Shown piece after piece: positions 24,916 through 42,503 of a stretch of DNA of 64,000 nt (the first letter of the stretch is position 1; each line of letters opens with the position of its first letter). A program made the translations under genes and the position numbers. Under the pieces are notes generated by a model. It saw nothing but the letters and a program-made list of their open reading frames with translations, did no database searches and was not told where the DNA came from. Source of the DNA: Coraliomargarita sp. (GTDB taxonomy: Bacteria; Verrucomicrobiota; Verrucomicrobiia; Opitutales; Coraliomargaritaceae); the NCBI GenBank assembly GCA_965216325.1, contig OZ244160.1, positions 864,001 through 928,000 on the forward strand, read 5' to 3'.

Positions 24916-24990
24916 GTAGGGGCTCTGCTTGCGAAGCCCGCAGTCGGGAATGCGACTCTGATGGGCGGGCTCCGCAAGCAGAGCCCCTAC
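24916..24990. repeat. REP doublet, GTAGGG family
   Basis: GTAGGGGCTCTGCTTGCGAAGCCCG ... CGGGCTCCGCAAGCAGAGCCCCTAC. Confidence 0.9.
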
Positions 24991-38526: not shown

Positions 38527-40170
38527 ATGACTGCTCCCACTAGACTTGATGTCGGCGAATCAGCGTTTCAGGAGCGTCCTGAGTTACAGAGTCATTTGGC
38601 GATCGAGAGCTTCGTTGCACTTGCACGTAAGCCGGGGCGTGTATTGGTGACGGATTGCACCCTACAGCGCCGAGAGATGAAGGCTGGCTTTTTGTTGGCA
38701 CTGGCGTGGATGCTGTCTCGCTTGATCTTGCAGAAGACCGAGAAGCAACGAGTGGGCATTGTGTTTCCTCCGGGGATCGGTGGTTACATTGCCAACCTCG
38801 CAGTCGTCCTCGCGGGCAAGGTGCCGGTTAATTTGAATTTTACGCTTGGCCGGGCCAGTGCGGAGGCGTGCTTGCGCAAGTCCGACATTGATTGCTTGCT
38901 GACCGCACAGGCGGTGAAAGCAAAGTTGCCGAATTTTCCATGGCCCGAGTCTGGCTTGATCGATGTTGTGCTTGAGTTGCAGGCCATTTCGAAGCCGAAG
39001 ACGATTGCGCTGCTTGTGGCAATCTACGCGCTGCCGGCTAAGTTGTTGGCCAAGTTACTCAAGGTTCCGAGCCAAGGTGATCGAACAGAAGCCGGTTTGC
39101 TCTTTACGAGTGGCAGCTCCGGCGAGCCCAAAGGGGTGGTGCTCACACACCGCAATATCTTGGGGAATTGCATGCAAATTGATGCCTCCGGCCTGTTGCC
39201 TGCCGATCAGAAGATCATCGCGAACCTCCCGATTTTCCATAGCTTCGGCTTCACGGTTACGCTCTGGTATCCACTGCTACGCGGCTGCGGAGTGGTCTCC
39301 CTTCCGTCGCCTTTGGAGGTTAAGAAGATCGCCGATACGATTGAAGCGGAAGGTGCCTCTGTCTTGGTAGGCACTCCAACCTTCTTTAAGCCCTATTTGA
39401 AGCGCATTGCGCCCGAGAAGTTGAAGAGCTTGCGCTATGTGATCGCTGGAGCAGAGAAGACCCCGGATGGCTTTGCAGATCATTGGGAGCAAACCTTTGG
39501 TAGCACTTATTTGGAGGGCTATGGACTCACTGAAACCTCCCCCGTGGTGAGTGTGAATCTTCCAACCGCACCTAAAGAAGGAGACTATCCCGGTGATCCC
39601 GATGTGGGGAATCGCCGTGGTTCAGTGGGACGTCTGATGCCTGGGCAGACGGCCCGTATTCTGAATCCGGATACACTCGAAGATTGGCCGATTGACGCAG
39701 TTGGGGTGTTGGCTGTCAAAGGGCCGAATGTTTTCGGCGGATATTTAGATGAACCCGAGCGCACGGCAGAGGTCATGGATGGTGAATGGTTCATTACCGG
39801 TGACTTGGCACGTATCGATGACGATGGCTTTATTTACATCGAGGGGCGCTTGTCACGTTTCTCCAAGATTGCTGGAGAGATGGTGCCGCACGGCACGGTT
39901 GAGGAGTGCTTGAATCGTGCTTTTAATCTACTGGATGCTGAAGTGCCGATGCTGGCTGTTGCCGGGCGTCCCGACGAGTCGAAGGGCGAGGCTCTGGTAT
40001 TGTTGACTGCGATTGATCTCGAATTGGATCAGGTGCGCGAGAAGCTGGCAGCCGAGGGCCTGAGCAATCTCTGGATTCCCAAAGAAATTAAACGCGTAGA
40101 AGCCATTCCGACGCTGGCGACTGGTAAGCTCGATCTAAGAGCGATTCAGGTTGCTGCGCTTGAGGGGTAA
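38527..40170 (+). CDS. AMP-binding acyl-ACP synthetase (Aas C-terminal-like)
   Basis: [38 protein letters not shown]. Confidence 0.9.
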
Positions 40171-40227
40171 ATTCGTAGATGACATGGGCGTTTATCAGGA
40201 GCACGGAAGTGCTATGATGATAAACTT

Positions 40228-41316
40228 ATGCAAAACCCCACATCATCTACACGGACAACTAAGAACGCACTGGGCACAGTAATCAAGCTTGGCATTGACG
40301 TGCATGCGAGCACCTACGTGGTGGTCATGAAGATCGATAGCAGCGCCCCTTCACGCGCGAAGCGCATGAAGCCTGATATCTTCCTTCGATGGATTAAGCA
40401 GCTGAGCACTCAGTGCGAGCAGTTGCAAAGTTGCTACGAGGCCGGTCCTTTTGGTTACAGCCTGCACCGCAAGCTCAAGGCGATGGGCGTGAACAACCAC
40501 GTAATCCGCCCGATCAACTGGGACACTCATGGTAAGAAGGTAAAGACCGACGCGCGTGATGCGTTGCAAATGGTCTTGAGTCTGGACGGCTATCTGCGGG
40601 GCAATGACCGCAGCTTCAGTGTCGTGCGTGTGCCCAGCGAGCAAGAAGAGCGTCACCGCAGCCTAACCCGGCAGCGTGAAAGCTTCGTCAAAGAACGTGG
40701 CCGTGCGGCCAAGCGTGGTAAGAGTCTGGGACTGTATTACGATCAACCCTTACCCAGCGGCTGGTGGAAGCCGCGCAAATGGATGCAGCTACTCGAACAG
40801 CTCGACGATTTTTTGATCAGCCTGCTGGAGCCACTGCGGTTAAACTGCCTGCACTTTAGCGAGCTAATCAGCAACATCGAAGAACGTATCGAAGCGCTCG
40901 AGCCGGAACGGGTGCTGCCTAAAGGCATGGGGGTGGTCCTCTATGAACAGATCGAACGTGAGGTCTGCAACTGGAAGCGATTCAACAACCGCAAGGCGGT
41001 CAGTTCCTTTACCGGACTGTGCCCAAGCGAAGACACTAGTGCAAATCGGCGTTTCCAGGGCTCGATCAACAAACACGGCAGTCCCCGCCTGCGGCATATG
41101 CTACAAGAGTGCGCCTGGTTATTGATCCGGTGGAATCCCGGCTACAGTGGGGTGCGTAAATGGCAGGCCAAGCTCAGCGACGAGACCACCAGTAAGGCGA
41201 CCCGCAAGAAAATTGCCGTGGCCATCGCCCGGCAGTTCGCCGTGGACTGGTGGCGCATACGCACTGGCCAATGCAGTCTCGAAGACTTCGGACTGATAAG
41301 CAGACAAAACCCATAA
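40228..41316 (+). CDS. IS110 family DEDD recombinase/transposase
   Basis: LGIDVH, YEAG and KTDARDA (DEDD); GLCPSEDTSA (catalytic Ser region); AVAIARQ. Confidence 0.95.
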   Translation: MQNPTSSTRTTKNALGTVIKLGIDVHASTYVVVMKIDSSAPSRAKRMKPDIFLRWIKQLSTQCEQLQSCYEAGPFGYSLHRKLKAMGVNNHVIRPINWDTHGKKVKTDARDALQMVLSLDGYLRGNDRSFSVVRVPSEQEERHRSLTRQRESFVKERGRAAKRGKSLGLYYDQPLPSGWWKPRKWMQLLEQLDDFLISLLEPLRLNCLHFSELISNIEERIEALEPERVLPKGMGVVLYEQIEREVCNWKRFNNRKAVSSFTGLCPSEDTSANRRFQGSINKHGSPRLRHMLQECAWLLIRWNPGYSGVRKWQAKLSDETTSKATRKKIAVAIARQFAVDWWRIRTGQCSLEDFGLISRQNP

Positions 41317-41374
41317 GTCCGAACCAACGCTAAAGGCCTTCACCCTCTGATTTTAACGTTCTTTTGCAGTTTTC

Positions 41375-41540
41375 CTTTGTGCGGAGTGAGTCTGACCAAG
41401 CCCCTGTTGCCAACACAACGATTTTGTAGAATAGGCCACTTCGCCACCAAGCTTTTGAATGACCCAATGGATAGGTCATAGTGTGCTCTTCTGAGAAACA
41501 CTCAGAAACACGGATAGCAGGTTATCCCGGATCATCGAAA
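41375..41540 (+). ncRNA. putative bridge RNA (target-binding and donor-binding loops); transcript ends unknown
   Basis: Two stem/internal-loop/hairpin units (41381-41444, 41459-41535) whose loop strands match the target and the circle junction. Confidence 0.8.
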
Positions 41541-41759
41541 CTCCGAGGCCATGCGCGGTGGACGCTCAAAGACGATTGCAATCAAAACAAACCACTTATC
41601 TTATGTAAAAACACTCACACGCTTCTACACTCTTGACAGAAACGAACATAGCAGGGGCTTTGCTCGCCGTTTAGACAAGCTCAAGGCCCTGAGACTGTCG
41701 AGGGGCGGAGCCCTTCAATAGCATGTGCGCATCAGGTGCGGGTGGCGCAAGCACCACCC

Positions 41760-42398
41760 CTATGCCTTCACCTTAAACAAGGTGCCGCCTAGGCTACGGG
41801 GCTTCTGCTCGGAGGTGGCGGTGCCTTCGTCGCTGATCAGTTGGCCGTCTTCAAAGTAGCCGGGCTCTTTTCGCCAGTGCTTTTCGAGTTCGTCGTAGAG
41901 GTCGAGTAGCTCGTCGAGTTCGGTCACGCGGAATTCGATAGTTTTGGCATGTGTGGCGATCGGGTATTCTTTCATCACGACGTCGCCGGTGATGGTTTCG
42001 GTGATGCCGCGGGCTTTGTCGGCCATGGCTTGCACGCCGGGGACGTTCGCTGCACTGCCCGTTGGGATACCCGTCGTCGCTGTTGTAACGTTGCTCACTG
42101 CAGCGGCGTATTCGCCAGGCATCAGAGGGCGGGAGTAGTAGATGCGCAGTAGCGCATTGGCGTCAGTCATGACATTCACTTCAACGACTCGAAAGCCAGT
42201 GGTAATGTATTCCTGCTTAGAGATGGAGCGGAGCATGTTTTCACGTGCGAAGTAAGCTCGGGTTTCGCCCGGAAATTCGATGCCGAAGAGCTGCTTGTTA
42301 CGAATTGCGTTGGTGTCGACAGTGACTGCGCCTGCAGTGCTGAGGGCAGACAGTCCAAGTAGGAACAAGGGGGTAAATAGTTTGGTTTTAAGAAACAT
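41760..42398 (-). CDS. secreted hypothetical protein
   Basis: Signal peptide MFLKTKLFTPLFLLGLSALSTAGA. Confidence 0.8.
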   Translation of the reverse strand: MFLKTKLFTPLFLLGLSALSTAGAVTVDTNAIRNKQLFGIEFPGETRAYFARENMLRSISKQEYITTGFRVVEVNVMTDANALLRIYYSRPLMPGEYAAAVSNVTTATTGIPTGSAANVPGVQAMADKARGITETITGDVVMKEYPIATHAKTIEFRVTELDELLDLYDELEKHWRKEPGYFEDGQLISDEGTATSEQKPRSLGGTLFKVKA

Positions 42399-42503
42399 TA
42401 TGATTAAGTGTGCTGCGTATGAAACGTGCGGAAAGCAAATATGTTGCACACTTAGTAATTTGATTTTGTGTAACTATTCAAGCCTGTCGCCTATATACCT
42501 CTC

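Follow-up and report, generated by a model that had tools for sequence, protein, structure and literature searches.

A REP-targeting insertion sequence of the IS1111 type in Coraliomargarita, probably directed to its site by a guide RNA

The element and its ends

The 64,000-nt stretch of the Coraliomargarita sp. genome analysed here (the window; GenBank assembly GCA_965216325.1, contig OZ244160.1, positions 864,001 to 928,000, forward strand) contains an insertion sequence (IS) lodged in the head of a repetitive extragenic palindrome (REP). Its neighbours are convergent: a gene for an AMP-binding enzyme ends at 40170, and an open reading frame (ORF) of 229 aa lies on the minus strand at 41760-42449. 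Coordinates are positions in the window unless stated otherwise, and the genome consists of one contig of 3.06 Mb. A preliminary description of this DNA had proposed IS1111-style ends and a precise insertion into the GTAG head of a REP. The sequence of the region 40171-41712 was identical with the one given there, and the end sequences, the inverted repeats, an outward-facing TTGACA and the motif TGCTATGAT were all found where that description had placed them. The element and its target consist of the following parts:

40172-40178, plus strand: left half of the target, TTCGTAG, with the REP head GTAG at 40175-40178 and the core AG at 40177-40178
40177-41652, plus strand: insertion sequence of 1476 bp, the AG being counted with the left end by the IS1111 convention
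40177-40183, plus strand: left terminal extension AGATGAC (7 nt), with ATGAC at 40179-40183
40184-40193, plus strand: left subterminal inverted repeat ATGGGCGTTT, continued imperfectly to about 40201
40228-41316, plus strand: transposase gene (362 aa, DEDD / IS110 family)
41317-41652, plus strand: non-coding right end, 336 nt to the AGC and 338 nt to the AG
41640-41649, plus strand: right subterminal inverted repeat AAACGAACAT
41650-41654, plus strand: right extension AGC (41650-41652, 3 nt) and core AG (41653-41654)
41655-41664, plus strand: right flank GGGCTTTGCT, directly after the core AG
41655-41713, plus strand: REP body at the insertion site, one of the long variants in the GGGCTTTGC...GCGAAGCCC family of palindromes; other genomic copies are 80-89% identical

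The AG was present at both junctions, so that the 1476-bp element owns a single AG and its extent may equally be given as 40179-41654 if the AG is counted with the right end. The left end was short (51 nt, 40177-40227) and the right end long, which is a layout of the IS1111 type. Extensions of 7 bp on the left and 3 bp on the right beyond the repeats are the spacing of the IS1111 family (PMC11187229), and exactly these lengths were found, as had been proposed in the preliminary description. The assignment to the IS1111 subgroup rests on this architecture.

The repeat ATGGGCGTTT matched the reverse complement of AAACGAACAT at eight of ten positions, followed by a gapped and imperfect continuation. 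The subterminal repeats of IS1111 elements are usually 11-13 bp long and perfect or near-perfect according to one source (PMC11187229) and 7-17 bp long according to another (PMC11208160). Taken alone, the repeat found here is not beyond chance: the pair has no exact 6-nt seed and was absent from the output of a generic inverted-repeat scan of the 1.5-kb element, and the same scan reported 28 other inverted pairs of at least 10 nt within it. It was judged real because nine genomic copies have exactly these ends, the offsets are kept in relatives and empty alleles exist.

The relatives were collected from 20 loci found by a scan of species genomes, all with titles of Verrucomicrobiota and mostly of Opitutales, and five more came from 401 genomes of the phylum, among which the family was present in eight, including the genome of the window. 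Their tips agree in AG/ATGACATGGG on the left and ...CCCATAGCAG/ on the right (the slash marks the junction), and they keep the offsets of the repeats ATGGGG and CCCCAT, with AG/ATGAC-ATGGG... on the left and ...CCCAT-AGC-AG/ on the right. The sequence AG/ATGAC occurred in 14 of the 21 elements scanned (the window copy and L036-L055) and also in L058-L061; L062 had AGATGCC.

Copies, empty sites and mobility

The genome contained nine copies of the element, of which eight were identical over 1478 nt and one had a single substitution (equivalent to C>A at 41509). A comparison of the copies, as suggested in the preliminary description, showed that all nine share the same ends (left ...AG/ATGAC-ATGGGCGTTT..., right ...AAACGAACAT-AGC-AG/GGGCTT...), have unrelated left flanks and stand in the same orientation relative to the REP head. 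The left flank ended in GTAG in eight copies and in GAAG in one, and GGGCTT followed in all nine, in agreement with the precise insertion proposed earlier. With AG at both junctions of 9/9 copies and a single AG in the empty allele, the insertion occurs without target duplication and with a shared dinucleotide, as in the IS110 family.

Two observations concern single copies. The one preceded by GAAG (minus strand, at about 2,071,713) is also the one with the substitution, and the change falls in a predicted helix of the second RNA domain described below. Near the copy on the minus strand at about 1,553,951, two free REP heads located a few hundred to 1500 nt away share its 14-nt left flank accttgcgttgtag, which suggests a local repeated block containing the REP.

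Empty sites were examined by aligning the contigs of four public runs, all of which consist of contigs, to positions 39700-42100. A 437-nt contig from a seawater metagenome (X6) joined 40176 to 41653, skipping 1476 nt, with the two letters AG fitting on either side. A 32,111-nt contig from an algae metagenome (X7) joined 40178 to 41665 with GGGCTTTGC between them and one T of the REP missing; apart from this 1-nt deletion, the empty site is the same. The flanks in both contigs were near-identical to those of the window (1 and 9 other letters, respectively), the strains being about 99% identical there. The empty alleles read TTCGTAG/GGGCTTTGC, that is ...TTCGTAGGGGCTTTGC..., which is the site predicted, as a test set beforehand, by the preliminary description. 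In a sample labelled as the same organism (X3), the element was assembled as a separate 1484-nt contig with a depth of 447.7 against about 55 in the flanks, a ratio consistent with eight to nine copies. When metagenome contigs were scanned for exact matches to a left-flank 20-mer and to a right-end 22-mer, 0 were found for each. Within the genus, the nearest genome, G002 (77% identity in the flanking gene), was uninformative on the empty site: the gene order is kept there, with a 60-bp spacer carrying neither REP nor IS.

These data bear on the possibility that the element is no longer mobile, its copies having multiplied as REP-plus-IS blocks through recombination or duplication, and the empty alleles being older than a single old insertion. 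The substitution of one copy within a predicted RNA helix would be in keeping with such a history, as would the lack of a circle junction in the contigs of the four runs, which cannot show rare forms such as circles. The nine unrelated left flanks with an exact junction in each and the strains of about 99% flank identity without the element at this locus make it very unlikely, and the eight identical copies with an intact 362-aa frame indicate recent spread. That the insertion sequence is active or recently active is part of the reading preferred here.

The targeted REP family

The REP body is the palindrome GGGCTTTGC-TT-GCGAAGCCC, of which longer variants exist, and the copy in the window is among the long ones. 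The REP at 24916 reads GTAGGGGCTCTGCT and has one mismatch to the site restored by excision, just as noted in the preliminary description. Exact copies of GTAGGGGCTTTGCT numbered 19 in the genome, and 81 were counted when up to one mismatch was allowed, a number that includes the nine GCAGGGGCTTTGCT right junctions.

The host carries both components known from REP systems, a GTAG-headed palindrome in many intergenic copies and a gene for a REP-associated tyrosine transposase (RAYT) with the same repeats. The latter is an ORF of 191 aa (genome positions 1679850-1680750, locus L072), which matched the REP-associated tyrosine transposase model NF047646 with 89.5 bits (cut-off 80) and has doublets of the same GTAG-headed REP family on both sides. 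From its sequence, this neighbourhood looks like a REPIN/RAYT system. The genome had 16 matches to the Y1 transposase family PF01797.

Only one part of the REP population was used by the element. Free GTAGGGG heads numbered 319, and the REP subfamilies sharing this head continue with CGCG (40), CGTT (25), CTTT (21), CTTC (11) and others; only 34 of the free heads go on with CTT. Of the GTAGGGGCTT sites, 34 were free and eight occupied, and all nine insertions lay at GGGCTT, so only the CTT class of the GTAGGGG heads was used. Eight of eight GTAG insertions within a class of about 13% would be very unlikely if any GTAGGGG head served, and the restriction to GGGCTT means that three bases which only the guide described below distinguishes are read. 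A pyrimidine at position -5, present in 9/9 left flanks, was also considered as a sign of selection by the guide and was rejected, as it is found in 29 of the 34 free REP heads too.

A predicted guide RNA in the right end

The non-coding right end contains a predicted two-domain RNA. This module, which would explain the target specificity, is absent from the preliminary description. Its parts are as follows (MFE, minimum free energy):

41381-41444, plus strand: predicted target-binding domain of a seekRNA or bridge RNA (RNAalifold and pair counts, in agreement with the single-sequence MFE), with basal stems 41381-41384/41441-41444 and 41390-41394/41432-41436, an internal loop and a distal hairpin 41406-41410/41415-41419
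41398-41405, plus strand: predicted top-strand guide AAGCCCCU (AAGCCCCT), reverse complement of AG+GGGCTT, covarying with the right flank in relatives
41422-41429, plus strand: predicted bottom-strand guide UUUUGUAG (TTTTGTAG), equal to the left target (Y)YYGT + AG, covarying with the left flank
41445-41560, plus strand: second RNA domain with a multi-loop, candidate donor-binding part (RNAalifold, pair counts, MFE), with an outer stem 41445-41450/41555-41560 and a helix 41482-41489/41504-41512
41475-41479, plus strand: GUCAU, the weaker candidate donor guide, complementary to the left-end ATGAC
41514-41520, plus strand: AUAGCAG, candidate donor guide, equal to the right extension plus core, within the most conserved stretch of the non-coding end

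The consensus fold of the RNA-region alignment (12 elements) comprised 29 pairs, with 89.6% of the cells paired compared to 34.8-53.7% after the partners had been slid by one to three columns. Nineteen of the 29 pairs change on both sides, and none of 500 shuffles reached any of the five measures. The MFE structure of the window's own 185 nt reproduced the first domain. The alignment (A1) was made without L053 and L054, which have no RNA anchor motif, without L055, which has no start anchor, and without the near-duplicates L038, L044, L045, L049, L051 and L052.

The second guide lies seventeen bases on from the first, with the small hairpin between them and the basal stem outside. The top-strand guide is located 5' of the bottom-strand guide, and the two overlap on the AG in the target. 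The same arrangement has been shown experimentally for the seekRNAs of IS1111 elements including ISPa11, which lie downstream of tnp, with the top-strand match 5' and both matches overlapping in the target (PMC11187229). According to Durrant et al., 93% of IS1111 elements have a predicted bridge RNA in the right end, and the donor-binding bases are often located in a multi-loop (PMC11208160).

Covariation between the guides and the flanks was followed in the relatives. Of 19 elements with a readable right flank, 12 had a first guide complementary to the core and right flank at 8/8 positions, and these fell into four target classes (core plus right flank, then guide):

AGGGGCTT, guide AAGCCCCT: this element and L036
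AGGGGTCA, guide TGACCCCT: many elements
AGGAGTCA, guide TGACTCCT: L041
AGCGGTGT, guide ACACCGCT: L046

The second guide tracked the left flank through the versions GTAG, GAAG or TTGAAG, TAAAG, CAAAG, TTAG, CTGAAG and CGTAG; the guide version TGACCCCU/UUGAAG goes with GAAG/GGGTCA, the site of the relatives being GAAGGGGTCA. The position, order and overlap of the guides together with this covariation point to a target loop of the seekRNA/bridge-RNA kind, as described in 2024.

The opposite explanation would be that the transposase protein itself recognises the REP, by its hairpin shape or its GTAG head, and that the right end holds only binding sites and regulatory signals without any RNA guide. 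REPs are structured, their targeting was described long before RNA was implicated (PMC1525189), and the conserved subterminal repeats and extensions are candidates for protein binding; moreover, no RNA run for this organism is among the 24 listed. Such protein recognition is nevertheless hardly credible, because relatives with 45-65% identical transposases use GAAG/GGGTCA, GAGTCA or CGGTGT sites and not this REP, and the 8-nt loop changes to match the target in each such relative. The helices around the guides covary and the guides change only with the target, and recognition of the head as such is at odds with the exclusive use of the GGGCTT subfamily.

As for the donor side, the 15-16 nt around AUAGCAG were 100% kept in the distant L040, L042, L043 and L055, where they were the sole DNA similarity found by BLAST; it is by this BLAST comparison only that the conservation of the stretch is shown independently of the anchor used for cutting out the RNA modules. 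In L046, the RNA reads AUAGGAG and the right tip ATAGGAG. From these sequences, AUAGCAG is a plausible donor guide. The second candidate, GUCAU, would pair in this copy with AUGAC at 41459-41463 in a hairpin, and the relatives have AUGUCAU.

The transposase

The 362-aa protein matched PF02371 (Transposase_20) with 52.9 bits (cut-off 21.3) and PF01548 (DEDD_Tnp_IS110) with 29.2 bits, barely above the cut-off of 29.0. The score with NF033542 (IS110 family RNA-guided transposase; residues 21-344 aligned) was 137.8 bits, just below the cut-off of 140, and this near miss indicates a divergent member of the family. Residues D24, E71, D108, D111 and S271 were invariant in six aligned sequences (36-72% identity), and catalytic roles are predicted by analogy for the acidic tetrad D24/E71/D108/D111 and for S271. 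Transposases of the IS1111 family have 330-350 aa and a GL-P----S(t)G motif (PMC11187229). The motif here is GLCPSEDTSA, with GL-P----S in 6/6 sequences and A, D, N or G as the next residue, and the length is outside the family range. Plasmid-encoded proteins matched with at most 32% identity, and the names among these matches were only IS110 family, ISEc45, ISSso6 or ISRel9, with no named IS1111 reference. A phmmer search of PDB chains with the transposase gave 0 matches at E <= 0.01.

The proposed mechanism and its weak points

Taken together, the results are best explained by an IS110-family element of the IS1111 type which is RNA-guided into the head of the host REP (probability roughly 0.87). 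The DEDD transposase would excise the element as a circle and, leaving the target unduplicated, insert it at the AG within GT-AG-GGGCTT, with which one subfamily of the REPs begins. The target would be picked by a seekRNA or bridge RNA whose template is the 338-nt non-coding right end: in one internal loop, AAGCCCCU would pair with the top strand (AG+GGGCTT) and UUUUGUAG with the left target plus AG on the bottom strand. The guides would overlap at the AG core, the presumed place of strand exchange. The donor junction would probably be read by the multi-loop second domain with its AUAGCAG. Direct observations cover the element's ends and copies, its precise empty site, the conservation of the fold and the guide-target covariation; we infer the production of the RNA, its binding by the transposase, an intermediate in circular form, the donor guide and, if there is one, the junction promoter.

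Several findings weigh against this explanation. Seven of the 19 elements lack a perfect top-strand guide: L043 and L047 match at 6+1 of 8 positions, L049 has a 1-nt insertion, and L042, L050, L051 and L052 match in register at 3/8 positions only, with indels in the guide or the flank. Some of these elements are assumed to be decayed copies, as seems likely. In the genome itself, one copy of the nine follows GAAG, which is a mismatch to the bottom-strand guide. The RNA modules were cut out by means of the anchor GGATAG[CG]AG, whose invariance in those alignments is therefore by construction. The whole non-coding end was no more stable than its shuffles (z = +0.79), and the 185-nt module gave z = -0.90. 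A scan of 40100-41800 against Rfam 15 (E <= 10) found no family, its one chance match being to a snoRNA (17.6 bits; gathering score 52). The case for the donor guide is weak, the right tips of L038, L039 and L040 being one base off AUAGCAG. The protein is borderline to the curated models (NF033542 and PF01548) and unmatched among the PDB chains. Finally, none of the 24 runs listed for this organism is on record as RNA.

The left end and possible promoters

The left end and the start of the transposase gene contain several further features, which are listed with the outward-facing hexamer of the right end:

40190-40225, plus strand: left-end hairpin GTTTATCA / TGATAAAC around AGCAC-GGAA-GTGCT, just 5' of the start codon
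40210-40218, plus strand: possible extended -10 TGCTATGAT, overlapping the 3' arm of the hairpin
40232-40250, plus strand: inverted copy of the left end, AAAACCCCACATCATCTAC, in codons 2-8, able to pair with 40175-40193 and to enclose the start codon
41633-41638, plus strand: outward-facing TTGACA, possible -35 of a circle-junction promoter

The fold of 40177-40236 had -18.0 kcal/mol (z = -5.2), none of 200 shuffles being equally stable, and the hairpin is also formed in relatives with other helix sequences. The inverted copy extends over 19 nt with 79% complementarity and includes the GT of the target. Its fold-back pairing is possible in 9/9 aligned relatives, and the peptide P-T-S-S which it encodes is kept even at synonymous sites. 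In the consensus fold of the left end and ORF start (alignment A3, made without L043, where the pattern met a second left-end fragment), the outer helix was present in 9/9 sequences. Only one of its nine pairs changes on both sides, so an RNA role of the fold-back, for example in blocking read-through translation, is a guess.

The extended -10 named in the preliminary description is indeed present in the sequence. It is not kept in relatives, which have CGCTACAGT (L036) or GTCGCAAGA (the Synoicihabitans copies) instead, and it overlaps the conserved hairpin. In a scripted circle junction, predicted to read ...AACATAGC-AG-ATGACATGG..., TTGACA and TGACAT were separated by a 17-nt spacer, exactly the spacing stated earlier for this outward -35 and its weak -10.

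Expression of the transposase could depend on this promoter, which would exist in the circle only, its -35 contributed by the right end and its -10 by the left. Apart from the exact geometry, TTGAC recurred at an unchanged offset in 12 of 16 right ends, a sigma-70 promoter scan of the integrated element found 0 sites compared to 0.9 expected, and junction promoters with the -35 in the right end and the -10 in the left end have been reported for ISEc11, IS621 and ISPpu10 (PMC11187229, PMC12288879). However, TGACAT matches TATAAT at 3/6 positions, lacks the A at position 2 and fails the scan's own rule, with the reservation that the promoter consensus of this phylum may differ. Both hexamers also lie in a repeat or extension and are conserved anyway, so that the conservation of TTGAC is inseparable from its membership in the subterminal repeat; in addition, the REP-targeting ISPpu9 forms no junction promoter (PMC12288879). 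The dependence on a circle-only promoter is thus a tentative suggestion, with the odds somewhat against it.

Comparison with known systems

The closest parallel is ISPa11 (IS1111 family, Pseudomonas aeruginosa), which, like the present element, has a fixed position in a REP and subterminal inverted repeats (PMC11187229). Its seekRNA, from the non-coding region 3' of tnp and with the top-strand match 5', co-purifies with the transposase (PMC11187229), whereas the RNA of the present element is predicted. In a comparison by description only, the latter differs from ISPa11 in the host phylum (all relatives found here belong to Verrucomicrobiota/Opitutales), in the REP and in a transposase of 362 aa against the 330-350 of the family. 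ISEc11, ISKpn4 and ISPst6, whose seekRNAs have been shown experimentally, likewise have 7-nt and 3-nt extensions, no target duplication and a seekRNA in the 3' non-coding region, but their targets are a linear site or attC sites and not a REP (PMC11187229). In ISEc11, a junction promoter forms on joining of the ends (PMC11187229), whereas here it is only predicted.

ISPpu9 and ISPpu10 (IS110 family, Pseudomonas putida) resemble the present element in their multiple copies within REPs, and their circles do form (PMC12288879). ISPpu10, one of six elements inspected by hand by Durrant et al., has a core dinucleotide at both ends, as found here, and a strong junction promoter; its core is CT instead of AG (PMC12288879). 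In ISPpu9, A/B boxes are present together with an ssr9 module that is mobile on its own (PMC12288879); a DNA search of the present genome found no solo copy of the non-coding end. In the IS621 bridge RNA system (IS110 group), which also has a DEDD transposase, loops of the RNA pair with the two strands of the target and of the donor at a shared core dinucleotide (PMC11208160), as predicted here. IS621 carries its bridge RNA, with two simple internal loops, in the left end (PMC11208160), in contrast to the right-end position, the reversed order of the guides and the multi-loop candidate donor part of the present element.

The element offers little that is new in kind, since REP-targeting by IS110/IS1111 elements has been on record from 2006 and their guidance by RNA from 2024. 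It is of value as a clean natural example outside the Proteobacteria, combining nine near-identical copies, wild empty alleles, a host REP/RAYT system and relatives with co-changing guides and targets. Such sets help to define the rules that the guides of RNA-guided recombinases obey (length, wobble, tolerance of core mismatches) and to annotate IS ends correctly, and they show a mobile element colonising another selfish repeat family.

Possible retargeting and side observations on relatives

A more far-reaching interpretation, which we consider speculative and rather unlikely as a whole, would combine three points: the verrucomicrobial elements would form a distinct, deep-branching IS1111-like subgroup, natural retargeting would be readable among them, and the left tip would fold back over the start codon. 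The distinct subgroup is suggested by the protein of 362 aa, by its scores at or below the family cut-offs and by the lack of a sequence match to a solved structure. If this interpretation were true, a change of three bases in one 8-nt guide and of one base in the other would have moved the element from GAAG/GGGTCA onto the host REP. If the fold-back were true, translation would be limited to transcripts that begin within the left end, for example those of a circle-junction promoter.

Two of the relatives had peculiar structures. In a contig of Puniceicoccaceae (L043), the full copy is preceded, some 270 nt upstream, by another left-end fragment from a related element (at about 1225-1325), which may represent a nested or tandem insertion. 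In the Synoicihabitans element L039, the distal non-coding end contains a threefold tandem repeat of ACCACCTTCAACTCAATCCACT, present as one unit in the sister copies.

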